Source: Savitreella phatthalungensis (lineage: Eukaryota). From it: a stretch of 64,000 nt of DNA. The notes below the pieces were generated by a model, which saw nothing but the letters and a program-made list of their open reading frames with translations, ran no database searches and had not been told where the DNA came from. Both the position numbers and the translations under genes were made by a program. The stretch is from positions 186,001 to 250,000 of the forward strand of contig AP039706.1 in assembly GCA_051599415.1 (NCBI GenBank), given 5' to 3'. Below, piece after piece: positions 17,062 to 63,821 of this stretch. Numbering within the stretch: the stretch's first letter is position 1; each line of letters starts with the position of its first letter.

Positions 17062-18582
17062 ATGGATCCAGGATTCAAGTACATCAAGACGCCAGCGGCC
17101 AAGTCGCGTGAAGTCTCTTCCAAGGACTGCGGTATCCGGACGACCGCTTACCCAACCATCAAGAACGCCCCACTTCCGGCCGATGGTCCTGGCTCTCACT
17201 CGTGGAGCAACCTGCTGATGATTGGCGTTCTCGTCGCCCTGCCGACGTACATCACGTACAAGCTCGGGATGGGCAAATGGACTTGGCTTGTGCTGTTTGC
17301 GGTGATGGCGGTGCCCCAGCTCGCTGGGTTCTGGTGGGTCAACTCTACCTTCGGTCCTCGCCTCAACAACAAGGTGACGTACCCCGGCAAGCCGGTCGAG
17401 TCGTACCTGACATTCAAGGACCCCGAGCTGGCGCGCAAGTACGCCGGCACGTCCAAGATCCCACTCGAGACTTTCCAGGAGCTGTTCATCGAGGGCAAGG
17501 TGGAGGTGAAGGGCGACATGCTGGACGTGCTCGAGTATAGGCACGATTGGGCGACGTTTGCGTTCACCATCTCGTTGTTCAAGTTCTTCTTGTTCGGGAT
17601 GCTGCCTGAGGTCATCATCCACTCGCGTTCTCAGGACGAGGAGCAGGTTCGAGACCACTACGACCGGGGCGATGACTTCTACGGCTGGTTCCTCGGGCCG
17701 AGAATGGTCTACACCTCTGGCATCATCAACGACATCAACCAGGAGGAGTCTCTCGAGCAGATGCAGGACAACAAGATGCGCGTCATCTGTGAGAAGATTG
17801 GTCTCAAGCAGGGTGACACCATGCTCGACATTGGCTGTGGTTGGGGAACGCTCTCGGCCTTCGCCTCGCAGGAGTACGGAGCCAAGGTCGTCGGAGCCAC
17901 CCTCGGTCGCAACCAGACAAAGTGGGGCAACGATGCACTTCAGAAGCTTGGTCAGTCTCAGAGTAAGATTGTCTGCATGGACTACCGTGATATCGCCATT
18001 CCAGAAGGCGGCTACGACAAGATTACGTGTGTAGAGATGGCAGAGCACGTGGGTGTCCGCCACTTCTCCGGCTTCCTCACCCAGGTTTCAAACACGCTTT
18101 CCGACGACGGCGTGCTGTACATGCAGGTCGCAGGTCTACGAAAGCCTTGGCAGTTTGAGGACTTGGTCTGGGGACTTTTCATGAACAAGTACATCTTCCC
18201 CGGCGCAGACGCCTCCACCCCGCTCGCCTTCTACATCTCCTCCCTAGAGTCTGCCGGTTTTGAGATCGAGAGCGTCGACAACGTCGGCGTCCACTACTCC
18301 GCCACGCTTTGGCGGTGGTACCGGAACTGGCTCGGCAACAAGGACGCCTGCATGGCCAAGTACGGTAGCAGGTGGTACCGGATCTGGGAGCTCTTCCTCG
18401 CCTGGTCGACCGTCGTCGCTCGCCAAGGCGGAGCAACCTGCTGGCAGATCGTCTGCCGCAAAAACATCAACTCCTTCCACCGCATCGACCGCCAGCCCGT
18501 CCAGCACGGCCTCAAGGTCCCATCGAATGGCGCCAACGCCTGGAAGGGATTCCCATACGCCGATGGCGTTGTGGCCAAGTAA
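17062..18582 (+). CDS. MTS1: Sphingolipid (glucosylceramide) C9-methyltransferase, cyclopropane fatty acid synthase family
   Basis: PLPADGPGS plus two TM helices, QVRDHYDRGDDFY, SAM motif LDIGCGWG, ITCVEMAEHVG, FMNKYIFPG. Confidence 0.92.
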   Translation: MDPGFKYIKTPAAKSREVSSKDCGIRTTAYPTIKNAPLPADGPGSHSWSNLLMIGVLVALPTYITYKLGMGKWTWLVLFAVMAVPQLAGFWWVNSTFGPRLNNKVTYPGKPVESYLTFKDPELARKYAGTSKIPLETFQELFIEGKVEVKGDMLDVLEYRHDWATFAFTISLFKFFLFGMLPEVIIHSRSQDEEQVRDHYDRGDDFYGWFLGPRMVYTSGIINDINQEESLEQMQDNKMRVICEKIGLKQGDTMLDIGCGWGTLSAFASQEYGAKVVGATLGRNQTKWGNDALQKLGQSQSKIVCMDYRDIAIPEGGYDKITCVEMAEHVGVRHFSGFLTQVSNTLSDDGVLYMQVAGLRKPWQFEDLVWGLFMNKYIFPGADASTPLAFYISSLESAGFEIESVDNVGVHYSATLWRWYRNWLGNKDACMAKYGSRWYRIWELFLAWSTVVARQGGATCWQIVCRKNINSFHRIDRQPVQHGLKVPSNGANAWKGFPYADGVVAK

Positions 18583-26377: not shown

Positions 26378-27019
26378 CTAGACGACGGTGTTCTCGCCAG
26401 CTGCTGCTTGCTCTTGAGCGAGTTTTGTGTGCTGGACAATATCGAGCGATTCCCATGGGTAACAGACCCACTCGCCTCCTACTTCCTTGCCCACAAAGTA
26501 CCGCGACATGTCCATCAGGTCGTCCAGCTCTGCCTTCTTCGGCTTGTTCTTGTTGTGTACGACAAAGACTCCGAACTCTGTGTGTGATTCTTTGAGTGTC
26601 TGACCGACGGCCTCTGCCTGGGAGGTGGCGTCTTTGAGTAGCTCTCGGACGGCGTAGTGGAGGGTGGTCCGGGTGTCGTCGACTTCATCGACGATGAGGA
26701 TCCGCTTGCCTAGGAGTGACTTGCCGCCCATGGTGGAGAAGTCGAGCCACTGGATCCGCTGGACTTCTGCACCGATTTGTTCCTCTACGCCTGTGCCGAG
26801 ATCCTCGTAAAGCACGAGACCGATCGCCTGGATCGGGATGTTCTTCTGACCTGGAACTTTCAAGAACGTGCGCAGAATACGTGCAGGGATGAAACCGCCG
26901 CCGCCAATAGCCAAGATCAGGTCGGGCCGGAAATCGCGCAGGATGACCTCGCCTGCAGCCTGGCAGAGCTGGTGAATCTGGTCATACGACACATATACCT
27001 TCTTTGGTGTGTCTGTCAT
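26378..27019 (-). CDS. XPT1: Fungal xanthine/hypoxanthine-guanine phosphoribosyltransferase (Xpt1/Hpt1 type)
   Basis: YVSYDQIH, AIGGGGFIPARILRTFL, PRPP motif ILIVDEVDDTRTTL, YPWE. Confidence 0.9.
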   Translation of the reverse strand: MTDTPKKVYVSYDQIHQLCQAAGEVILRDFRPDLILAIGGGGFIPARILRTFLKVPGQKNIPIQAIGLVLYEDLGTGVEEQIGAEVQRIQWLDFSTMGGKSLLGKRILIVDEVDDTRTTLHYAVRELLKDATSQAEAVGQTLKESHTEFGVFVVHNKNKPKKAELDDLMDMSRYFVGKEVGGEWVCYPWESLDIVQHTKLAQEQAAAGENTVV

Positions 27020-27367
27020 CTTACCGAGATGTGTATGTAGGTAATAGAAGGCGAACGCCGAAGTATCAAAGGAGAAGAGGACTCCTATAGATCTTCACAG
27101 CGATGTGTAGCCTAGAATGAGCTCAAGTCAACGGTTGAAACTGTGTAAGGAACCAGGAAAAAAAACCCGTGCACGGAATCCCGCAACAATATTCTTGAGC
27201 GTGATACCAGGTGATCACAAAACGATAATGTTATGCACGCCTTAAGTCAGCAATATAGAGCCAGGATGGAAGGTGTCATATACTATATTGTGTATATCGA
27301 TAGAGTTCCTTAAATACAAGGTATTTGCTACATATATCGTAGAGATCGTGTGTCTTCTCGATCGAAT

Positions 27368-29626
27368 CTAGTAGTAGAGCTCTACCAGGATCGAGATGAT
27401 CATGCCGATGAGGAAGATTCCAATCAACGCGACGCCTAGCCCACGAGTCATCCTATACCCTTGTGCTGGGATAGCAATCAGCATCGTCACAAGTGTCGTC
27501 AGGAGGGAAGCGCAGGTGATGATCAGAGTCGGCGAGATTTGCGTGTCGTAAGATTTGTGGGATGCGAGGTTGACATAGGCGCCAGAGATCCCGAGTCCCA
27601 GAAGGATGTTCATCAACGGACCTCCGAAAGTGGCTGAGAATGCCATGACTGAGAATCCCATCCTGGCGACCGTCACATCCGCCACAAAATCGGCAAGAGA
27701 GCTACCGACAGCGAAGACTGTCAGTCCGAGGATGGCATCTGATAGGCCGAGGATTGTGCCGAAAGCTTGGAGTACGCCGACAAGCTCGCTCGCGATGGTC
27801 GAGATCCACGTGATCGATACAAGAAATCCGACAGCTGAGAGGTAGGTGTGATACTTTGGACGCTTGTGCGGACTGGTGGACGTCAGGAGTAGACCAACAG
27901 AGGACGCTGCAACGACAGCGGCGACGGCAAGTGGGATCAGCTTGAATCCAGGTTCCAGCACAGTCGTGGCCAACAAGAACGGAGCCAGTAGAGCCTGAAC
28001 GCAAGTCAACCACCGATTCCAGCCACGTTCGCCACGATACCGATCTGTGTCATCATGTGGTACCACTTCCATCGCATCCAGCTCGGCGTCGACATCTCCT
28101 TGCTTGTCATCTAGCGGTGGGCTAACGACTGGTAGGGTTAGCGTTAGGACGAGGACTGACGGAGCTGCGAGCACAGAAAGCAACTTAGAAGACCAGCTCT
28201 GTGCTCTGAACTTGCACAATGATGGCAGCAGCAGGTGCTTCAACTCGCTCGGCGATGGCAGCAGCCATAGTGGCCATCCTGCTGGTACCCAATCATCAGG
28301 GCGGATTTGCTCTCCGCGTGGGCTTTCCTCATCCTCGTCGTCCTTTCTCAATTCAGTCGCCTGATATGTAGGCGATCGCTGGAAAGTCGGAGTATATTCG
28401 TCTGCCATGGAATCGAATGGATTATGTTCCACAGCCACAGGCGAAGGTGTGATGGACAACTCGATAGCGCTCGTAGGCGAGTCTTGTGGCGGACCTTGCC
28501 AGTTCGGGGGCTGCACGCCAGCGACCGAGGTCGACTTCATTAATACATCAGGCGAAGCCATGGGGATGCGGACTGGGGCATTAGTCGAATGGCCACGTGC
28601 ACTGCTCTGCCTGGACATTAAGGCAGGCACTGCAAGCGAATGAGAGCGCGGTCGACCACGCATCACCTTGATGGCGTTCTCCGTGGGCGTGCTAGCCTGT
28701 GAGACACCTCTCGCGAGTGCTGAAAATTCCAAGGCGCCAAGAAGAGATGGACGAATGTTCTTCGTCGTGTGTAATGGGTTGCCTGTGATCGACATACTTG
28801 AGTTCAGGTCTTGATAGGCGTGACGCTGTCGCTGGACTTCCTCCTCGTCAGGGCTTACTTCGACAGGCTCTGTATCATCTTCAAGTAGAGAGACATCTGT
28901 CTCATCTCCGGATGCTACAGCACGCTCCCGCCGGTGTCTCCGACTCGTAAACCACTGTCCTGCGAGAACGACAGCAACATAAGCGACATAGAAGAAAATC
29001 ATAAGCAGCGATTCCCAGAGTCTGAGACGTCCATCTGCGAGAAGGAACATTGTCATCACGACAGCGACAGAGAAAAAGCCAGCGTCCCGTAGGAATGCGC
29101 GACGTGAGACGTTGAAAGGCGAGATGATTGCCATCACTCCAGCCACGACTGAGGTGATGAAAGCGGCAGCACCGAGCAGTTCGCCAATTGCCAAACTGCC
29201 AGAGTTGGCTTTGAAGGCTGCAAAGGTTGAGAACACATCCGGAGATCCGTTGCCGAGGGCGAGCAAGGTGACCCCTGCAACACTTTGACTCATGCCGAGA
29301 CTGTTTGCGATGGTAGCCAAGTTTGGGCAGAAGAAGTCGCTCGAAGCGATGCCGATCGTGCTGAAGAGCAGTGCTGTCCAGAGGCATAAGATGATGAATC
29401 CAAGAACGGGTGTGGTAGCCATGGAGCAATAGTACCATGCAATATAGCCGATGTATCCTGCGGCATCGTCATGACAGTATTTGAGCGCGTGCTTGCACTG
29501 GTCTTTTGCCTCGTGCAGATCTGCGCAGTGATGCTTGCCCTTTAAAGTGGTTAGCTGATGGGCGCTTGCGACTGAGATGCAAGCGAGTGAGGCTATCAAG
29601 AAGGTTGCGCGCGAGATTTGCGGCAT
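27368..29626 (-). CDS. Cation/Ca2+ exchanger, CCX family (Ecm27-like)
   Basis: Signal peptide, alpha-1 repeat AGVTLLALGNGSPDVFST, alpha-2 repeat LGLTVFAVGSSLADF...GGPLMNILLG, large central loop. Confidence 0.92.
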   Translation of the reverse strand: MPQISRATFLIASLACISVASAHQLTTLKGKHHCADLHEAKDQCKHALKYCHDDAAGYIGYIAWYYCSMATTPVLGFIILCLWTALLFSTIGIASSDFFCPNLATIANSLGMSQSVAGVTLLALGNGSPDVFSTFAAFKANSGSLAIGELLGAAAFITSVVAGVMAIISPFNVSRRAFLRDAGFFSVAVVMTMFLLADGRLRLWESLLMIFFYVAYVAVVLAGQWFTSRRHRRERAVASGDETDVSLLEDDTEPVEVSPDEEEVQRQRHAYQDLNSSMSITGNPLHTTKNIRPSLLGALEFSALARGVSQASTPTENAIKVMRGRPRSHSLAVPALMSRQSSARGHSTNAPVRIPMASPDVLMKSTSVAGVQPPNWQGPPQDSPTSAIELSITPSPVAVEHNPFDSMADEYTPTFQRSPTYQATELRKDDEDEESPRGEQIRPDDWVPAGWPLWLLPSPSELKHLLLPSLCKFRAQSWSSKLLSVLAAPSVLVLTLTLPVVSPPLDDKQGDVDAELDAMEVVPHDDTDRYRGERGWNRWLTCVQALLAPFLLATTVLEPGFKLIPLAVAAVVAASSVGLLLTSTSPHKRPKYHTYLSAVGFLVSITWISTIASELVGVLQAFGTILGLSDAILGLTVFAVGSSLADFVADVTVARMGFSVMAFSATFGGPLMNILLGLGISGAYVNLASHKSYDTQISPTLIITCASLLTTLVTMLIAIPAQGYRMTRGLGVALIGIFLIGMIISILVELYY

Positions 29627-30520
29627 TGTTGAATGGGTCGGAACTCAAGAAGATTCAGAGGACATGATTTGCAAGAGTTTATTGCTGGACAAGAAGAGAA
29701 AGGAGATGAAGGCGCTGAGTCTGTGTCTTCGTATGAGCTTTTGACGAGTTATGCAGTTTTCAGTTGCGTAGTCGTGTGATGAACTGTTGTAGGGTACAAG
29801 TATATCTCTGTTCACAGGTGTGATGTAGTTGGTATGATGTAGTTGGTACTGTGTGATGTAGTGGAGTATGTATGAATGTGTGTGGATGTTTGTCTATACG
29901 TAGTAGGAAGCTACGTAACTCAAGTCTTGGAAATCGATCCCATATATGCATGCATGTTCTTGGCTTTTCTTGGATAGATTCACCCCACCCACTCAATTCG
30001 GTCATTTTTCAACGTCAACTCAACTTCTTCCATCCCGTGCATTCATTCATCACAAGATCGATTCTTTCTTCTTTCCATCGATCGATCCATTCACCTAGCT
30101 CTCTTGCAGTCCGATACATGAATGAATTTAGAAATTTCAATTTACCTTTCTGGCTTTAAATTCTGAAGTTAGAATTCAATTCCATTTTAATTTTTGTATT
30201 TTGGATATGTGCACGGGATTCCAAAAATAGCAATTGATCATACAGCTGCAATATACACTAAATTTCATCTTCATCATCACCATTATCAATATTGCCATAT
30301 ATGCAACAACAACATACACACATGCAGCTAGCTGAATCATAGCTATCTATCTATATAGCCTATTCTGTCCCAACCATACCATTTCTCTACTCAGTATGAT
30401 GATCGTGACTGGGCATTCGGTATAGCTATCAAGCCATCAAGCAAGGATCAAAACTCGGGGTGGATGGATGACTAGAGCCAAGTAAGTAAACAAGGCGGAT
30501 CCTGCTCTCTTTCTTCCTCT

Positions 30521-39150: not shown

Positions 39151-40340
39151 ATAATCCCGTGATTCACTCGCTCTTGAGAGTCCAGACCGCGAACTACTTT
39201 TCACCTTGACAAGCTCATCTGGCTATTCCTATTAGGGTTGATTTGCTTTAAACATTGACAGAGGCTCCAGAGTCATCTTCTGAATGCACGAAAGCACGAA
39301 AGCACGGGAGTGATGGCATGTGGTCGAGTTAGAAACAGTTCGATCTCATGGACCACTTCAGCAACAATCCGACAAATATTCAGCAACAGCCTTGCGACCG
39401 GATAATTTTGCTCTCTATTGGGGGGTCCAGACACTGAGTGCTGACTTCATAGTCGCACGTCTCAAGGAAGCAATCTCTGGCCAGCCTTTCTACGAGCCTC
39501 AATCACGCTGATGATGATGACAACCTCACGTGTGGCAATCCTAGAGCTCTACGGTGTTGAGGCTGACAAAAGGTTTGACTCACAGGAGCCGGGCAGCTGT
39601 GGAGATTTAGCATTTGTCTGCATGAGAAACACTTCAGACACGGGATTACACCAAGGATGGATGTACTCGAGGGCAATGCATAACTTTGTGTGTGTGCTGA
39701 CCTAAATTTGAGTGTACACAAAGTCAAAGTCAAAGCCAAAGCCAGAGTTTCAAGCTGTATCTGAGAACCAAAGGGCGTGTACCCATCGAGTCGTTGTCTA
39801 TGCACGGCACGTTATCAATGAGAGCGACCCATCCAAACTCATGTCTGTGTGAATGTGCATATGAACGATAATATTTGTCCATAGGGTGATCAATCCAATC
39901 TACCGTGTGAATGATATTTGGTGTTTCTGACGTCTGGATCTACCAACTTTTCGAATGACTCTTCGATTGTTCATGGCACGGGGGCAGGATGCATGAGAGA
40001 ATGGCCACCGATTCGATCTCAACCAATCATGAACAGCTTTTTTGAATCGAAGGCATTTTGGTGTGTGTTATGATTTACCTCCATCAGATCTGAGCTGGAT
40101 GGGATAGTGTTGAGATGAAATTTGATATATGATACAGCTGTAGAGATGCAGCCACTAAAGCGATTTCAAACTTGACTTTGATTTAGGTTCAGATATTCCA
40201 CTCAGACAACGATCACTATAATTTAGTTGCAGACTGGAATCTGTAACTCTTTTTGACTGGCTCAACTACGATTTTGATTGTTTCCACTCAGGCACCTGGC
40301 TGTGACGCGTTCCAGGGCACAAATGCTCAACCACACACTC

Positions 40341-48560: not shown

Positions 48561-49769
48561 TGATACGCCATCTAATACGATGCCCTTGGAACAGGCCTAG
48601 TTGACGTCATGAGGCAAAGGCATCGATGAACAAGAGCGAGAATACTGGCAGCTTACAAAGCCTCGTTTGTAACCATCAATCAAATTGCGCGAATGGATCG
48701 CTGATACCCTGCCACTTTGAGGCATCAGCCTGGGGTCGGTCAAGATAACCACGCATGATCCGTGACTCCCGCCAAAGACTTCTTGCTCGTTCATTCAGTC
48801 AGATCACGTGTGAACGTTGAGCAGCACATATTTCCGCTTGAGATGGGAATCTTTTTCAGCTCGAGCAATCATCGACCATGAGAATGCAGAAAACGGACGA
48901 CGACGCAGCCAAAAAGTTCTCAATCACATTTGAAGTATCAATGGATGTTCCAATGGAATCAAGTTTTAGAAGCCAAGACTCGCCGGCCTGCTGACCCTTC
49001 AGCGTCTTTCAAGGTCAAGGATCAATGATATGCATCAGAGGTGTGGCTCCGATGCAAGCGTGCTAGGATCTCGTATAGTCCCATGGAGGATGTGTTCAGG
49101 TAGATTGTATGTATGGAACTGCTTGCCGTGGAATCGAATTGACTCAAATGTTGGAGATGTAGTCAAGAATTGGCCACAAATTTGTTGCACGTGTGCATTC
49201 CAAACTGGAATTCATGTAGCATGAATATGAAGTCTATGCCTGCAGGCAGGGCATAATCAATCAATATAATAAGAATTACAGTATCTACAATTCAAAGTAT
49301 ACTGCGTGCACGATATCGGTACATCGTCCGAAAAGACAACTCATTCTAACTGATCCTGTTGGAAATGTTCAGGCGAGATATTCACATGGAGGATAGATCC
49401 CACATATTGCCCGATGCACGAAAATGTATCAGGAAATGCATTCAATTCAGTCAATCACAATTAAAGGGGTGCATTAAGGGTACGTGCAGTATGGTAGGTA
49501 GGTGCATATAAATTATTGATAGAGTACGTATGTACGTACGTATGCATAATGAATGAATGCATCTCACAAATTCATGAATCACAGTGTCAGAAAATGAGAG
49601 ACAGATTCAAGACAAAGTGAAAGAAAGAAAGAAAATCATCGGCGCGTGCACAAACCCTTAGAGCACGCACATTATCACATTCGCACGTATACACCATCCT
49701 GCAGTGAAGTGAACAAGTACTCAAAGCAATTAAAACAGAGGAAAAGCTCGAGGAAGACATCACACGACA

Positions 49770-54465: not shown

Positions 54466-56454
54466 CTACAGCTTTGCGCGATCCTCGCCCATGACCTTCT
54501 CAACCTCTCTGAAGCGGTAGTAGTCGTCCAGACATGGCTTGTTGGCGATCGTGGCGGAGACTTTCGGTGTTGCACCGGAAACGATCTGCTTGACGACCAG
54601 CTCGACTTTCTTGCCGTTGATCGTGAGTGGGATCTCGTCAACGAGACAGACGTAGCGCGGAACGTGGCGTGGCGAGAGTGCCTCGCGAATGGCCTTCTTG
54701 ATCTTTTTCTCGAACTCGTGTGGTAGCCGTGGACCTTTGAGCGACTTGTCTCGCATGATGAGGAATAAGAGGACTTGCTCGTCCACGTCATTCGGTCGGC
54801 GTTGACCGACGCAGATGGCGTCTTCAATTTCGGCAAAGCGTTCAGTCACGGCGTAGATCTCTGCGCTACCAAATCGAACACCACTCGGATTCAGGACGCC
54901 ATCTGATCGACCGAGGACCGTCACGCCACTGCTTCCCTTCTCGAAGACGACAAAGTCACCATGGTGCCAGATGCCAGGGTAGCGCTCGTAGTAAGCGGCT
55001 TTGTACTTGCTGCCTGATGGGTCAGAAAGGAAGTAGATTGGTTGGGAAGGGAAAGGCTTGTCACAGACGAGCTCTCCTGGCTCGCCTGGTGCGCAGATCG
55101 TTCCTTCCGAGGTGTATGCACGGGCGGCCATGCCAAGTGCCACGCACTGAAGCTGTCCAGGGTAGACAGGTAGGACGGGACTTCCGATGAAAAAGCAGGC
55201 CATCAGATCCGTACCTCCAGATACACTGCTGAGCTGGATGTGCTTCGGCCAGGCAGCATAGAAGTGGTGGAAGAGGTCGGGAACAAGGACACTGCCGGTC
55301 GAAGTGACGACGCGAAGCTTTGATCCCTGGAGAGTCTCCTTAGGAACGATGTTCTTTGCCTTGAGCTCTGATAGCCATCGCGGCGATGTGCCAAAATGCG
55401 TAACTCCTTCCGTCTTGATAAATCTCAGAAGTCCGGGCACGTCGACCATGGGTGAGCCGTCGAGCAGGACGACAGTCACACCGTGCGACACAGCAGTAAC
55501 ACAATACTGCCACATCATCCAGCCAGTCGTTGTGTACTGCCAGAAGACATCTCCCTTGCGCATGTCAAGGTGGTAAGCATATTCCTTCCGCATCTGCAGA
55601 AGTATTCCACCATGGCCGTGCACAATGCACTTCGGCGGGCCTGTGGTGCCGCTGGAGTACATGACAAACAGTGGATGACCGAAGTCGACGTACGTGTACT
55701 CGAAGGGTTTCTCAGACGATGCCTGCTGGAACTTGTCGAGGGTGGTAGTTCCCTCGAGATCCATCGGCATGTCAGCCAGATTAGGCAGCATGACGAATTG
55801 AGCACCACGCACCTCTGTGAGCACCTCTTTTGCCTTGCTACGCAGATCGTGACGCTTGCCATTGTAGAGCGAGGCGTTGTCAAAGAAGACCACTTTTGGT
55901 GTGATTTGCTTCAGTCGATCTAAGATGCCAGAGGTTCCCATGTCCGGCGAGGTACTTGAGTACACTGCTCCAATTGCTCCTGTTGCGAATGCAAGGGTGA
56001 TGGCGTGGATCGAGTTGCAGACAATACCAGCTACGCGATCACCTGGCTGAACACCGGCTGCACGCAGAGAGTTTGCGAGGGCATAGACGCGGGCCTTGAG
56101 ATCCCCGAGAGTAAATCGAAGAATGTCGGTCGCTCCTTCTCTTGCCGTCACGACAGCGATGCGACTCTCGTCTTGGCCTTCCAAGCAGTTCTCCGTGTAA
56201 TTGAGCTTCGCTCCGGGAAACCAGCTGGGCGGAGGGTACATGCCCTCGCCATTCAGCACTTTGGTGGGCCTTTGCTGCAGCCTGATGCCAAGATGATCCG
56301 ACATGTCAAGCCAGAATTGCGGCTTCTCAACTGAGTATTTGAGCAGCTCATCATAATTTCGTAGGTTCAGACCATGCTTCTTGTTGATGGTACGGCGAAG
56401 ATCAGAGACCTGAGTGGCTTCTATCTGCTTTTCCGTGGGTTGCCAGAGCACCAT
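54466..56454 (-). CDS. Acetoacetyl-CoA synthetase (acetoacetate-CoA ligase)
   Basis: WFPGAKLNYTEN, YSSGTTGPPKCIVH, YTTTGWMMW, SGGTD, GRSDGVLNPSGVRFGSAEIY, NGKKVE; ATG at 56454 (MVLWQP). Confidence 0.93.
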   Translation of the reverse strand: MVLWQPTEKQIEATQVSDLRRTINKKHGLNLRNYDELLKYSVEKPQFWLDMSDHLGIRLQQRPTKVLNGEGMYPPPSWFPGAKLNYTENCLEGQDESRIAVVTAREGATDILRFTLGDLKARVYALANSLRAAGVQPGDRVAGIVCNSIHAITLAFATGAIGAVYSSTSPDMGTSGILDRLKQITPKVVFFDNASLYNGKRHDLRSKAKEVLTEVRGAQFVMLPNLADMPMDLEGTTTLDKFQQASSEKPFEYTYVDFGHPLFVMYSSGTTGPPKCIVHGHGGILLQMRKEYAYHLDMRKGDVFWQYTTTGWMMWQYCVTAVSHGVTVVLLDGSPMVDVPGLLRFIKTEGVTHFGTSPRWLSELKAKNIVPKETLQGSKLRVVTSTGSVLVPDLFHHFYAAWPKHIQLSSVSGGTDLMACFFIGSPVLPVYPGQLQCVALGMAARAYTSEGTICAPGEPGELVCDKPFPSQPIYFLSDPSGSKYKAAYYERYPGIWHHGDFVVFEKGSSGVTVLGRSDGVLNPSGVRFGSAEIYAVTERFAEIEDAICVGQRRPNDVDEQVLLFLIMRDKSLKGPRLPHEFEKKIKKAIREALSPRHVPRYVCLVDEIPLTINGKKVELVVKQIVSGATPKVSATIANKPCLDDYYRFREVEKVMGEDRAKL

Positions 56455-56740
56455 GACGACTTGAGAGCTTGTCGTAAAGATCGCAAGCTTGGCAGCAGCG
56501 TCAACGAAGGACAAATAGAGACTCGGAGGAAAGAGGATGACACACAAATTATAGGTAACACAGTACTCTGGGGAAGCGCTGGCATTCACCCCACGCATAT
56601 CCCATGTCGACTGGTTAAGCGGAGCCGGAAATAATCTCGGAACGGCAATGACTTTCCGAGCAGTCTAAAGGCTGTCAAATTCTTTTTTATCTTCTGTGTG
56701 CTCCAACTTAAGCGCGCTTCCCTTATCTAGTGCCAAAAAT

Positions 56741-57841
56741 CTACAACTCAATCTTGTCGAGGATGGCCTTTGTCATGTCGTGAGTGGTCGACGTGCCCTT
56801 CATGTCGCGCGTGCGCACCTTGCCCTCCTCAATGACAGCATAAGCAGCCTTTGCGATGGCGTTTGCAAAGTTGTCCAAACCGAGATGACGGAGCAGCATG
56901 CACGACGATAGAATCATGGCCAGTGGGTTCGCCTCATCCTTGCCCTTGATGTCGAGGCCGACGTGACGGCATCCAGGCTCGAACAATGCGTAGTCACGAC
57001 CGATGTTGCATCCTGGAATCAGACCTGGTCCGCCGACCAATCCGCCCATCACGTTGGACAAGATCGAACCGTACAGGTTCGGCATGAGCATGACGTCGAA
57101 TTGCTGAGGCTTCGAGACGGCCTGCATGGATGCGTTGTCAACGATCATGTCGTTTGCCTGAATCTCGGGGTAGTCCTTGGCGGTCTCGTAGAAGACGTCG
57201 CGGAAAAGTCCGTCTGCGAGCTTCATGATGTTAGCCTTGTGGATGACAGTGATCTTCTTGCGGTCGTTGCGCTGGGCAAAGTCAAAGGCGAACCGGGCAA
57301 TGCGCTCGGACTTTGCACGGGTGATGACCTTCAAGGCCTCAACCACGCCTGGCACGGCCTGCTGTTCTAGGCCAGAGTACTCGCCTTCGGTGTTCTCGCG
57401 AATGATGACGGCGTCGATCCCGTCGTGTCGTGTCTTAAGCCCTGGGAAGTTCTTGATAAAGACAGTGGATGCGTAGAGATCAAGCTCCTGGCGGATAGCA
57501 ACGTTGAAAGATGCATGTCCCGAGCGCTCTAGCGGTGTGTAGAGAATACCCTTCAGGCCAACCTTATTGCGGCGGAGAGATTCTACTGCCTTACGGTACA
57601 GCTGCTCAGATCCATCCTTTGTACCCTCAGCAGCCAAAATGCCGGTCACATCGACCTCCTCAAACTCTACAGGAGCATTTGTAGCGGCAAAAATCTCCTT
57701 GACGGAATCTGCGACCTCACGACCAATACCGTCTCCCGGGATCAATGTAGCGGTGTATTTGCCGCCGTATTTCGTCGGCTGAAAGGTAGCGAGCCCGCGG
57801 CTTGCATGCCGTGCACTCGATACAACTGATGAGCGAAGCAT
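56741..57841 (-). CDS. IDH1: NAD-dependent isocitrate dehydrogenase, regulatory subunit 1 (mitochondrial)
   Basis: Presequence, YGGKYTATLIPGDGIG, IRENTEGEYSGLE, DNASMQAVSKPQQFDV, FEPGCRHVG. Confidence 0.94.
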   Translation of the reverse strand: MLRSSVVSSARHASRGLATFQPTKYGGKYTATLIPGDGIGREVADSVKEIFAATNAPVEFEEVDVTGILAAEGTKDGSEQLYRKAVESLRRNKVGLKGILYTPLERSGHASFNVAIRQELDLYASTVFIKNFPGLKTRHDGIDAVIIRENTEGEYSGLEQQAVPGVVEALKVITRAKSERIARFAFDFAQRNDRKKITVIHKANIMKLADGLFRDVFYETAKDYPEIQANDMIVDNASMQAVSKPQQFDVMLMPNLYGSILSNVMGGLVGGPGLIPGCNIGRDYALFEPGCRHVGLDIKGKDEANPLAMILSSCMLLRHLGLDNFANAIAKAAYAVIEEGKVRTRDMKGTSTTHDMTKAILDKIEL

Positions 57842-58119
57842 TTTCGGTATAGAATGTGTGTGGAGATCAAAGGTCTATGTTGTATGCTTTGCTTGTGGTC
57901 CTTTTTGTTCAGGGCGTGTTGTCGGATGTATGGGATGAATATGAGTATGAGTGGGATCGGATCGTCTCAGGTCGGACCAAATCAAAATCCTGCTTCCGAT
58001 GAGCTATCAGGCAGTTGTGAAAGTGCACAAACACATATGTATCTATGCACATCTATGGCCGGGCTAGAACCACGATACGTATGATCCAGATCCCGTGGAC
58101 TAGGTAACTAATTTACTCG

Positions 58120-58325
58120 AAAAAAAAAAAAAGAGAGACGGAATTGCCCGTAACGTAACACAGAATTAACTTCGAATGCACAGCTAGTGGGATATCTCGT
58201 GCAACTTTGAATACACAGTATTCAGCTCTACTGAATGGATCGAACCTGGGCTCAACCATGGTAAGCACAGCGCGGTTCAAAGTGAAACCATGCTGACGAC
58301 TTGTCAGGAAGGTTAAGAGTGTCAT
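58120..58325 (-). ncRNA. Candidate structured RNA polymerase III-type ncRNA of unknown family
   Basis: Perfect B-box GGTTCGATCC (58237-58246, minus), T13 run at the 3' end (58120-58132), several nested complementary segments, no credible ORF. Confidence 0.4.
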
Positions 58326-60077
58326 TCTCGAATTCTAATTTCAATACTCTGAGTGCTTAGTTCTCATCTCTATTAAAAAAATCTGCTAGAGCGGTCGAAG
58401 AGGATGAGACTTTCTAGGCTATCCTGCATCTCACTGAAATTGAAGCCGGAACACTGGACTGTACTCCACTGCACTGCTCTCCACCAATCCCCAGCTCAAG
58501 ACGCTATCATCTGCCCGCTAATTGTGCCGTGAGCGCGCGCCTGCGACGGAATTGCATTCACGAAAATTGCTTGTTTGAGTCAGTAGGGATCGGGCGCGTT
58601 CGCGATTGAAATACATCTCGACGAATGCAAGTTGCATTTGCACGAGCACGAGCACGATCATCGACACGTGTTTTTCGCTCTAGTGTCTTTGACGCGGCTC
58701 ACGTATGGCATCCAATGCATTATAGCAAGCAGATTGATGAGGGACTCTATGGCTTTGATGCAGTAGCGATTCACTGAAACTCAGCGCCTTCCAAGTCTAT
58801 GCATTCTGACCAAGGCTGCGCTCATGCTTCACGTTGCTTGAATTGACTCGGTGAGCGCAACCGATATGGTCTATAGCCTGCTCAGCAGCGCGCGGTCACA
58901 ACGCAGCGCACTATTTGAGACGGGGCATCTTGTCGATCCGTTCAGGATTGACGCACCCCTGAACCCGTGGGCTTCGGACATTTCGCCTCGCGGTACAACC
59001 AAGATTGCACGGGGTCGATGGTGATTCGCGTTGCCGCGGTCCACGGTTGATCATTGATCAGTGAATGGTTCTACACCTAAGTTTGATATCCAAGTGGGTC
59101 TTGAGACTGAGGACTAGTGGCTCAGCCGCCACCAAGCCTCAGCATGCACCCCGCTGATCATCGTTTTTCACTTGAGCATTTCAGACGACGCGAAATTAAC
59201 GGTCTCTCAGTCTCACGCGCCGCTCCACTACAGGCACTCTTTCAATAGTGTTGGGAATGATCTGGATAACAGATGAACTTCCCTCGGTCGGCGGGGGCCC
59301 ACGTTCCAATTGAAAATTCACGGGGGTCGAATACCCGGAGCCAGGAGTCTGGACGTGGCCTCCATGCAGCTAGCTGTGTTTTCTTTGTGTGTACACGAGG
59401 TCGCTGGTATTGAATTGGTAAAATGAAATATCGAACTTTTATGTCTCGATCCAACATGGTATCATACGGCTCACAGATTGAAGATCATTTAATAAACAAT
59501 ACTCGCGCGAGCTATGGCTTATCCTGTTGCTCTGTTGCACCTTCCACACCTTCCAGATTATTCACAATCTATCGAAGGTGGAACTAAATGGTGGGTAAGA
59601 CCGTGACTATCCGAGCGTCGCGAATCTCTGGTCAGTAAAATGTTCTTTACCAATGTCTCGGCTCAAATGGCGGTGATACGACAAAATCCAATTTGGCCTC
59701 CAGCCTTCGAATTATCTGCGGAAGGTGAGCGCATTGATGACTGAAGCTGATTGGTACGCTTCCAACTCAGCCCCAGATTTCGGATCACACGCGAATCTAT
59801 CAGAAAACCTTCCGGCATTGCACCTTGTCCAGGCTCAGACTATGTGAGACCATTAAGATTGAGGTTGAGCATCAAAGAGCTAGACAAGTATCCTGCCATG
59901 CGGAGATGCCCAATCAGATTTCTAGCCAGCAACCAGCTCGCAGGTTCTCCCCCGCCTTGGAAAACCATCCGAGAACAATAACTGACAGAGCTGAAAAACA
60001 GCATGACCGCAGCAAGGCGCGTCTCGTGTTTATACTGCAACGGATGCGGGGGGAAGGGACTGTCGTCCTCAGTCGTT

Positions 60078-60083
60078 TATAAA
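60078..60083 (+). promoter_or_regulatory. Putative TATA box of the MFS transporter
   Basis: TATAAA about 100 nt upstream of ATG 60183. Confidence 0.5.
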
Positions 60084-60182
60084 GTCCACCTGTTCGCCCA
60101 TCTCTCGTCGTTTAACGGCAATCCCTGTATTCTTCCACTCACTCAGCCGCAGCCCCATCTTCCTTTCTCTATTGGCGGCAAA

Positions 60183-61955
60183 ATGACGGACCACATCACT
60201 GAGAAGAGGTTCGCTACTGAGGCCCGCGACTCGTCCTCCCTCGGCGACGGCGCAGACCTCGAGAAGACGGCCACTGGCACCACGCTCACAAAGACAGCCA
60301 CTGGTCAGGCTCAAATTGGCGCGGACGACGATGTCAAGATTGATGCAAAGACATTCATTGCCTGTTTGGCTCTTTCCTTCTTGTGGACTGGTTCCCAGAT
60401 CCCTCTTTACATGTTGCTCGCATGTGTCGACTTCACCCTAGCTGACATCGGTGGCGCAGAAATCCAGGTCTGGTACGTGCTTGGTCCAATTCTGGCCCTC
60501 GCTGCTACTGCACCTGTAGCAGGTTCGATTTCGGACGTCTTCGGCCGTCGTGGCGCCGTCCTCGCCGGTGCAGTCTCCCTTTGCATTGGTCTCATCCTCC
60601 TGGGAACCGCAAAGATTCCTGGACAGCAGCTCGCCTCTTTCCCGTTCACAGGTATTGGTGCAGCACTACTGGAGATCAACGCGCTGGCAGCTGTCAACGA
60701 AATCGCCCCGAACAAGCTCCGTGGCTTCTACACGTCGATGCTTGTCTGGACCATCATTCCTTTCGCACCTCTCGGTATCTACGCTCTTGAGCTCTCTGTC
60801 CACGACACCTGGCGCTGGAACGTTTGGATTCCGCTCATCTGGTCAGGCATTGGTCTCGTTCTCACCTGGTTCTTCTACCGCCCGCCACCCCGTGTCTTCC
60901 AGGGACACACGTTCACCAAGATGGAGAAGCTCAAGCGTCTTGACTGGGGAGGCTTTTTCCTGTCCGTTGCTGGCATCACCCTTTTCCTCTTCGGTCTCGG
61001 TGCGGGCGGTTACACTGCTCCATGGAAGTCGGCGACCGTGATCGTCCCTCTGATCCTCGGATTCCTCCTCATGGTCGGACTCTTCTTCTGGGAGGCCCGC
61101 TTTGCACGCAATCCGCTCATGGACACTCGTGTCTTCAAGAACACACGTGTCTTCGTCCTGACCCTGATCATCACTGCCGTCGCTGGAGCAAACTTCTTCT
61201 CGATCCTCATCCTGATCCCGAAGTACATTTTCTCCGTCTTCCCGCTCATCTCGACCGCACACCAAGGTCTTCTCATCATGGCACAGACCATTTCGACTCT
61301 GTTCGGCGCTGGATTCTTCTCCTGGACCATCTCGCGTTTCCACGGCTCCATCCGCCCGCAGATGATGCTTGCCTGCGTTCTCATGATTGCAGGTCTTGGT
61401 GCCATTCCCGCTGTTGGCTACGGTAACAAGGACACCATCCTCCTTGGATTCCTCATTTGTATCGGATCGATCGGCGTCGGCGGTATTGTTCTCCCGGCAT
61501 CTGTCATCACGCAGCTTTGCACGCCTGACGAATACCTCGGCACCGTTACTGCCATCACGTTCGTGGCTCGTGTGCTTGGTGGAGCAATCGGCTTCGCATG
61601 CTACTTCTACATCTTGAACTCTCGTGCTACAAGCATCTTCGCCGACTTGAAGAACCCGCCCTCGCTCAGGCTCATCTCCTTCTTGCTTGGTCAGAAATTC
61701 ACCGTGCCTGAACTCACTACATTCCTGCAGCACCTCGCCATTTCTGACCTCAAGTACATCCACCAGAACATCCCGAAGGCCACAGAGGCAGTCATCACGT
61801 ACTCAGAGGCATTCGCTCGTCCTATCTGGATCGATGCCTTCTCGCACGTCTGGTATGCATCGATCGGTTTCTCGGCAGTTGGCCTGATTGCGTCGGTCTT
61901 CCTCGGAGATGTGCGCAAGTACATGACCTCGCACCGCGCTGTCGTCTACCACTAG
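60183..61955 (+). CDS. MFS transporter, ~14 TM (DHA2 / TRI12-like fungal efflux family)
   Basis: FLWTGSQIP, GSISDVFGRR (motif A), EIAPNKLRG, WRW, FFYRPP, LDWGG, PWKSATVI; ATG at 60183 (MTDHITEK). Confidence 0.9.
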   Translation: MTDHITEKRFATEARDSSSLGDGADLEKTATGTTLTKTATGQAQIGADDDVKIDAKTFIACLALSFLWTGSQIPLYMLLACVDFTLADIGGAEIQVWYVLGPILALAATAPVAGSISDVFGRRGAVLAGAVSLCIGLILLGTAKIPGQQLASFPFTGIGAALLEINALAAVNEIAPNKLRGFYTSMLVWTIIPFAPLGIYALELSVHDTWRWNVWIPLIWSGIGLVLTWFFYRPPPRVFQGHTFTKMEKLKRLDWGGFFLSVAGITLFLFGLGAGGYTAPWKSATVIVPLILGFLLMVGLFFWEARFARNPLMDTRVFKNTRVFVLTLIITAVAGANFFSILILIPKYIFSVFPLISTAHQGLLIMAQTISTLFGAGFFSWTISRFHGSIRPQMMLACVLMIAGLGAIPAVGYGNKDTILLGFLICIGSIGVGGIVLPASVITQLCTPDEYLGTVTAITFVARVLGGAIGFACYFYILNSRATSIFADLKNPPSLRLISFLLGQKFTVPELTTFLQHLAISDLKYIHQNIPKATEAVITYSEAFARPIWIDAFSHVWYASIGFSAVGLIASVFLGDVRKYMTSHRAVVYH

Positions 61956-62939: not shown

Positions 62940-63182
62940 GCTCTGTTTCTTGGACTCTGATTCCTTCTGTTCAGCTACGGGCGTGGTTGAGTGTGCAGGT
63001 ATCTTGAGAAGGCTGGACTGGACAAGTTTCCAAGTATGCAGGGCGGGGCACAAACTCTGATTTGTGGACTTGTGAGTGGTCAGCTTTGAAGATCTCCACT
63101 TTTCAGGCCTGTGCACTGTCAAATCTCTTGTTTCACGCTTAAAAATTGATTTCGCCATTGAAAAGTCTCAAGTCTCATGCTC

Positions 63183-63217
63183 GAGTCAAGAGTCAAGAGT
63201 CAAGAATTAAGAATCAA
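63183..63217. repeat. 7-bp tandem repeat (GAGTCAA)x3 plus 2 degenerate copies
   Basis: Visible directly in the sequence. Confidence 0.75.
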
Positions 63218-63821
63218 GAGTGGCATCAAGGAAAGTAGGCCCAAATTAATATAGATTATAATTTATGGACTCGATCGGACTAGATCAGACAATTTATAAG
63301 ATTTACAAGACTTAGTAACATTATTAACTTGTACTCTCATGTATCTGAGTAATGCATATGCATATAATTTATATATGATTAAGCCAACACGCATACTAGT
63401 GACAGTCACTAACGTATACGTGCAACTGAAGGTGATCGCGTCAGAGATTCCTAGATGCACGTCAACTAGCACTCGACTCAACGATGCGGCACATCTCATC
63501 TGATCGTCTGCCAGAGGCGCAAATCCATGACAACCTTTCGTACACTTCATCTCAAAGCTTGTGTCGTTCACCCGATATAAAGCTTTCTTCAGGAATCTGT
63601 GCGGCAAGTCACTGTACGTCTGTATAATTTGTGTAAAAATAGAATACATATATAGCATATGTCTTTTGAAAGACTAAATTTAGAGCTTAAAATCGAGCGT
63701 ACGGCTTGAGTTATCATATCCAGCGAGCGGCTATGCACCAAATCGTGCAGATTCAATTAACAGCGAACAGGCAGAACTTCAGCTGCTTTCGTCAATCAAT
63801 CACTCACCTCACATAACAAAC

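Follow-up and report, generated by a model that had tools for sequence, protein, structure and literature searches.

The IDH1 locus and its upstream region

[quoted passage not shown] The nearest named relative of the IDH1 protein is that of Taphrina deformans, with 92% identity, and the cluster that contains the protein at the 90% level has a single member, so that no near-identical protein is present in the collection. The opposite side of the intergenic region is delimited by an ORF on the plus strand (60003–61955) for a multi-pass membrane protein of 650 amino acids, which, as judged by eye from its sequence, appears to be MFS-transporter-like.

Table 1. Features of IDH1 and its upstream region, with positions counted along the window.
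Feature	Position	Strand	Description
IDH1, NAD-dependent isocitrate dehydrogenase subunit 1	56741–57841	−	Uninterrupted ORF of 366 codons, PF00180
Divergent intergenic region	57842–60002		About 2.2 kb, ORF-free, between IDH1 (−) and the 650-aa ORF (+)
Low-GC island	58101–58400		GC 0.41 (mean of the window, 0.53)
20-nt pyrimidine tract (TCTCTC + T13 + C)	58119–58138	−	Longest coding-strand run upstream of 26 ORFs
T13 run (A13 on the plus strand)	58120–58132	−	Pol III terminator in the original prediction; here read as a probable promoter poly(dA:dT) tract
Nested-helix stretch	58133–58330	−	Minimum free energy (MFE) −53.9 kcal/mol, z −1.8
Small hairpin ACGGG-CAAT-TCCGT	58138–58151	−	5 pairs, 3 of them G-C, 4-nt loop
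B-box-like motif GGTTCGATCCA	58236–58246	−	10/11 against the consensus GGTTCGANNCC
T7 run	58375–58381	−	Second T run, just upstream of the candidate

An analysis of the reading frames across the intergenic region evidences no start-codon ORF of at least 80 amino acids before position 59825, the longest stop-to-stop frames spanning 83 and 80 codons. None of the 45 stop-to-stop frames of the region passed the Pfam cut-off, four matches remaining below the threshold, and a hidden gene or a transposon relic was therefore rejected. The candidate itself is spanned by an open frame of 73 codons (70 codons from its ATG), whose end corresponds to the T run translated as phenylalanines. A Pfam search with the 70-aa frame returned no match, and on this basis a small protein or a uORF over the candidate was likewise rejected.

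Some neighbouring ORFs elsewhere in the window lie around 150 bp apart, in comparison with which the 2.2-kb intergenic region is large, and several other gaps measure 2–3 kb. Either a long promoter or a non-coding transcript without annotation may be present in the region.

The T13 run and its sequence context

Clearly non-random among the elements that had been listed for the candidate is the T13 run, and it is the only one that goes beyond chance. It lies on the coding strand, 279–291 nt upstream of the IDH1 ATG, and is the single run of at least ten T residues in the window, against 0.07 expected. Indeed, homopolymeric runs are scarce here: the 64 kb contain only five A or T runs of 7 nt or longer, T13 and T7 among them, and when both strands are taken together there are nine runs of at least six T residues and two of at least eight. 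T runs being so rare in this genome, promoters do not routinely contain poly(dT) here, a point that counts against the promoter reading given below. On the minus strand of the 64-kb window there are four runs of at least seven T residues, and two of these four, T13 and T7, bracket the candidate at a spacing of 243 nt on the same strand.

The T13 run is part of a longer pyrimidine tract, which extends from about 279 to 297 nt upstream of the IDH1 ATG. We have compared this tract with the upstream regions of the 26 ORFs examined, in which coding-strand pyrimidine runs reach at most 16 nt at the other ORFs versus 20 nt at IDH1. The runs average 10.0 nt on the coding strand versus 7.9 nt on the antisense strand; on the coding strand, runs of 14–16 nt precede five further ORFs, and on the antisense strand two ORFs are preceded by long runs as well, of 14 and 17 nt. 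The other long coding-strand runs of the window are located 16–151 nt from the ATG, that is, nearer than the IDH1 tract. A parallel case is provided by the only other run of at least eight T residues in the window, a T8 which precedes the ORF at 26378–27019 on its coding strand, at a distance of 146 nt from the ATG.

In respect to base composition, the island in which the tract is embedded ranks in the lowest 2% of the 300-nt windows. Low-GC islands are also found directly before other ORF starts, at 30101–30400 before 30521 (+), at 49251–49550 before 49770 (+) and at 27076–27375 before 27019 (−). Together with those at 40001–40300 and 63126–63425, these islands have GC values of 0.33–0.41 and lie mostly upstream of ORF starts. 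From composition and position, it seems general in this genome that promoters lie in AT-rich islands.

Poly(dA:dT) tracts keep fungal promoters free of nucleosomes and are often found just upstream of the transcription start, and CT-rich tracts directly before the transcription start are an established feature of fungal Pol II promoters. The IDH1 tract resembles such elements in having a T run on the coding strand with a CT lead-in, located upstream of the ATG within an AT-rich island, and other genes in the window carry shorter versions of the same. It differs from the other tracts of the window in being longer (T13 within a 20-nt pyrimidine run) and farther from the ATG, at about 280–297 nt versus 16–151 nt, and this distance counts against a promoter role. 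Considering the strand and the rarity of the tract, the low-GC island and what is known of promoter tracts, we interpret the stretch as the AT-rich core of the promoter of IDH1. We hold it probable, with appreciable reservation, that it combines a poly(dT)/CT tract of a promoter with a B-box that is there by chance; for the 200-base candidate as a whole, the most likely identity is ordinary AT-rich promoter DNA containing a motif that resembles a tRNA promoter and has arisen fortuitously.

Under the promoter reading, the stretch would form the AT-rich portion, close to the promoter, of the sequence that precedes IDH1, and T13 with its TCTCTC lead-in would act as a promoter element of the poly(dA:dT)/pyrimidine type on the coding strand. 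The IDH1 mRNA would then begin a short distance past the tract, around position 58100, and have a leader of approximately 260 nt. The B-box-like 10-mer would match by chance only, and the nested helices would correspond to the level of self-complementarity expected of a 200-nt stretch picked by hand. This reading is supported by the position of the tract on the IDH1 coding strand, the coding-strand bias of pyrimidine runs, the T8 parallel case, the marginal fold, the low-GC island and the fact that the stretch has no other copy in the window; further support comes from the B-box, which is at chance frequency and comes without an A-box and without a match to an RNA family, as detailed below. 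If it holds, its value is limited to the removal of a false lead: for calling a Pol III gene, it does not suffice that a fungal promoter has a B-box 10-mer close to a T run.

Fold of the candidate and comparison with RNA families

The original prediction included a series of nested pairings, and as a description of the DNA it was accurate: on the minus strand from 58330 to 58120, all 12 quoted strings were found where they had been placed. The helix strings TGACAC/GTGTTA, TTAACCTTC/GAAGTTAA, the CTGAC...GTCAG hairpin, ACTTTGAA/TTCAAAGT and TGCAC...GTGCA are all in position, and so is the small hairpin, ACGGGCAATTCCGT, that precedes T13, the latter being a consensus-scan match only.

We have compared the folding energy of the stretch with that of shuffled sequences and of control tiles. 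The shuffles averaged −46.1±4.4 kcal/mol, which corresponds to z=−1.79 for the stretch, and 10 of 200 shuffles folded equally well; these values are to be read bearing in mind that the boundaries of the stretch were picked by eye for its pairings. In a repeat of the test, the minus strand yielded z=−1.80 versus −0.72 for the plus strand. A z-score of −1.79 or lower was reached by 2 of the 52 control tile-strands, obtained from 26 of the 103 ORF-free tiles of the window, whose z-scores have a mean of +0.29 and a standard deviation of 1.06. The fold is therefore only marginally better than that of the shuffles, and is comparable to the better-folding few percent (best ∼4%) of the control tiles, which together with the minus-strand bias speaks mildly against the promoter reading. 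The unconstrained MFE structure contains the outer helices originally described, and represents 0.0006 of the ensemble; when TGACAC/GTGTTA and ACTTTGAA/TTCAAAGT are enforced, the energy is −51.5 kcal/mol, at a cost of 2.4 kcal/mol.

The helices could also be real RNA structure that has nothing to do with Pol III, if the stretch were part of a Pol II transcript, either a long structured IDH1 leader starting upstream of 58330 or an upstream or promoter-associated non-coding RNA. The bias of the fold towards the IDH1 strand agrees with this scenario, as do the size of an ORF-free and Pfam-empty region that is large for a compact genome and the open frame that spans the candidate. However, the z-score is marginal, and the frame has no Pfam match and ends in phenylalanines encoded by the T run; altogether we regard a Pol II transcript of this kind as unlikely.

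In agreement with the earlier remark that hallmarks of U1–U6, SRP, RNase P/MRP or a TPP riboswitch are missing, Rfam returned no match at the gathering score. At E≤10, searches of 57700–58800, 58300–60100 and 58100–58400 resulted in weak scattered matches, and no family covers the whole candidate. The only match at this level that touches the candidate, and this with its 3′ end only, is to TtnuCD5, a model of a Tetrahymena box C/D snoRNA, at 58302–58375 (−), which scores 19 bits where the gathering score is 70 (E=2.9). Within it, GAGAUGA and CUGA are found 62 nt apart without a terminal stem, and the match is most likely due to chance in AT-rich sequence. A script in which the U of the C box had to match found no box C/D arrangement (RUGAUGA, CUGA and terminal stem) on either strand of 57842–60180, and a box C/D snoRNA was rejected on account of both results.

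A second weak match, to SNORA51, lies antisense to the start of IDH1 at 57808–57938 (+), and with 16.9 bits versus a gathering score of 50 and E=2.7 it is also most likely a chance match. Other RNA classes were discarded as well: a U6-like layout, in which T7 would be the terminator followed by a downstream B-box, because neither U6 nor any other Rfam family matches upstream of T7; RNase P/MRP and telomerase RNA, because Rfam gave no match and 57842–60180 contains no CCCTAA or TTAGGG; and a SINE or dispersed repeat, because the stretch is unique in the window, where no second copy of it was found.

The B-box-like motif and the Pol III machinery

The B-box of the candidate had been described as perfect. 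Its string, GGTTCGATCC, is indeed in place at 58237–58246 (−), but the full 11-nt site has one mismatch. All of G53, T55, C56, A58 and C61, which are critical positions of the motif, are kept, and the stem partner C62 is absent. The T-arm cannot form, G52 facing A62 and A51 facing A63 in an unpaired T-stem. The window contains 15 sites with at most one mismatch to GGTTCGANNCC versus 14.11 expected, a count of at least 15 being reached in 44 of 100 shuffles. The one exact match to GGTTCGANNCC in the window, at 17646–17656 (+), falls within a 506-aa ORF (17062–18582), which shows that such motifs arise by chance in coding sequence here. Three of the 15 sites are within the 2.2-kb intergenic region and five within 3.2 kb; in a scan-statistic simulation P was ∼0.28 for three sites in 1.1 kb and ∼0.05 for five in 3.2 kb, and clustering of the motifs was rejected as not significant. 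In two of the three local sites a T occupies purine position 57.

Type-2 Pol III genes have an internal A-box and B-box and end at a T-run terminator, as in SNR52, RPR1 and SCR1 of budding yeast. In such a promoter the A-box would be expected to follow closely on the start site and to precede the B-box by around 30–60 nt. It had been noted that the A-box of the candidate is not clear, and we find that between the B-box and position 58420 (58247–58420, −) there is no site with two or fewer mismatches to TRGCNNAGTGG; the best sites have three mismatches, and of these one precedes the B-box by only 7 nt, and the second overlaps T7. The candidate thus resembles type-2 genes in that a B-box-like motif is followed by a T run on the same strand, T13 beginning 104 nt downstream, and departs from them in the lack of an A-box, in a B-box with 10 of 11 positions and in matching no family model; nor are there snoRNA boxes after its B-box. 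That a B-box-like site is followed on the same strand, over the next 250 nt, by a T run of at least ten residues is expected ∼0.03 times per window, a value which is arithmetic from 15 such sites and one such run over 128,000 strand positions and ignores the many other patterns that a reader could pick. Under the promoter reading this co-occurrence is somewhat unlikely.

A non-coding RNA of ∼190–210 nt specific to the Taphrina lineage, with a B-box and no recognisable A-box, would be produced if TFIIIC bound to the B-box, transcription started near 58330–58345 and termination took place in T13. The retention of the critical positions, the placement of T13 on the same strand, the low expected rate of that co-occurrence and the better fold on this strand are all in line with such a gene, which T7 would in addition insulate from Pol III read-through from upstream. 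The usual Pol III terminator is far shorter than T13, which makes the latter unusually long in this role. Against this proposal are, furthermore, the chance frequency of B-boxes of this quality, the missing A-box at a workable distance, the lack of an Rfam or tRNA match, of a box C/D arrangement and of a second copy in the window, and an MFE structure that accounts for so little of the ensemble. The proposal of a structured Pol III transcript of ∼200 nt gains no support from these results, its fold being marginal, and we consider it quite unlikely.

In order to extend the comparison beyond the window, IDH1 was used as an anchor in a scan of metagenome contigs, from which the best 80 of 583 relatives were kept, the best 11 being fungal-like with 56–76% protein identity. 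Against the 80 loci, blastn of the candidate and of the intergenic region gave only chance matches of 15–39 nt (best E 0.59 and 0.022). Upstream of IDH1 in the 11 best loci there is no B-box-like site on the coding strand, and a run of at least seven T residues is found at one locus only (L011); no tRNA genes occur at these loci. Usable upstream sequence is available in eight of the 11, L002 and L004 having only ∼55 nt and L003 only 477 nt, and a T run matching that of the candidate is absent from all eight. The absence of a similar element upstream of IDH1 at these loci is a further point against the Pol III transcript and weighs lightly, since a comparison at 56–76% identity would say only that a deeply conserved element is ruled out.

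Alternatively, the B-box could be a site occupied by TFIIIC alone, of the kind termed ETC in budding yeast and COC in fission yeast, acting as a boundary or tether without recruitment of Pol III, in which case T13 would be an unrelated promoter tract. Such a site had been offered as a second explanation, next to a promoter poly(dA:dT) tract; of the two halves of that proposal the tract is the one we favour, the results being neutral towards the ETC half. The nearest named relative of the window, Taphrina, belongs to the same subphylum as S. pombe, which is compatible with a TFIIIC-only site, as are the divergent arrangement of IDH1 and the membrane-protein ORF and the presence of 3 of the 15 B-box-like sites in this region. 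According to PMC11724288, TFIIIC reads the B-box by base-specific contacts and barely touches the A-box. The likeness to the ETC sites of S. cerevisiae and COC sites of S. pombe, as described in PMC3395662, consists of an isolated B-box-like motif in a divergent intergenic region. What defines ETC sites is that TFIIIC occupies them, that they share an extended conserved consensus and that they are conserved in sister species. Occupancy does not follow from a lone 10/11 B-box of a kind as frequent as chance predicts, the clustering does not reach significance, and two of the three local sites carry T at purine position 57, so that occupancy by TFIIIC appears improbable to us.

Were one of these minority readings correct, a member of Taphrinomycotina other than fission yeast would be shown to have a non-tRNA Pol III transcript or a TFIIIC-only site, and such a site would be a handle on the interplay between Pol III factors and a neighbouring Pol II promoter. 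In the case of a Pol III transcript, IDH1 expression could also be influenced, either by this RNA or by the complex of Pol III and TFIIIC bound at the site. Among the papers on Taphrina that literature searches listed, none deals with Pol III, TFIIIC or non-coding transcripts; PMC5824354 mentions snoRNA targets of T. deformans, and no mention of Pol III was found in it.

A decayed tRNA gene or a fragment of a tRNA-derived SINE, of which the B-box-like 10-mer would be what is left, is very improbable, given that ARAGORN found no tRNA gene in the whole 64-kb window (in accordance with the earlier view that the candidate is not a tRNA cloverleaf), the Rfam tRNA model gave no match at E≤10, the T-stem is unpaired and no A-box accompanies it, no other copy exists in the window, and none of the 11 fungal-like IDH1 loci has a tRNA gene.

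On the other side of IDH1, 143 bp downstream of it, there is an ORF of 710 amino acids (54466–56598, −), which by eye would seem to be acetoacetyl-CoA-synthetase-like. The exact sequence of IDH1 is present in the protein collection and that of the 710-aa ORF is absent, which indicates that the public gene model of the latter probably has another start or an intron.
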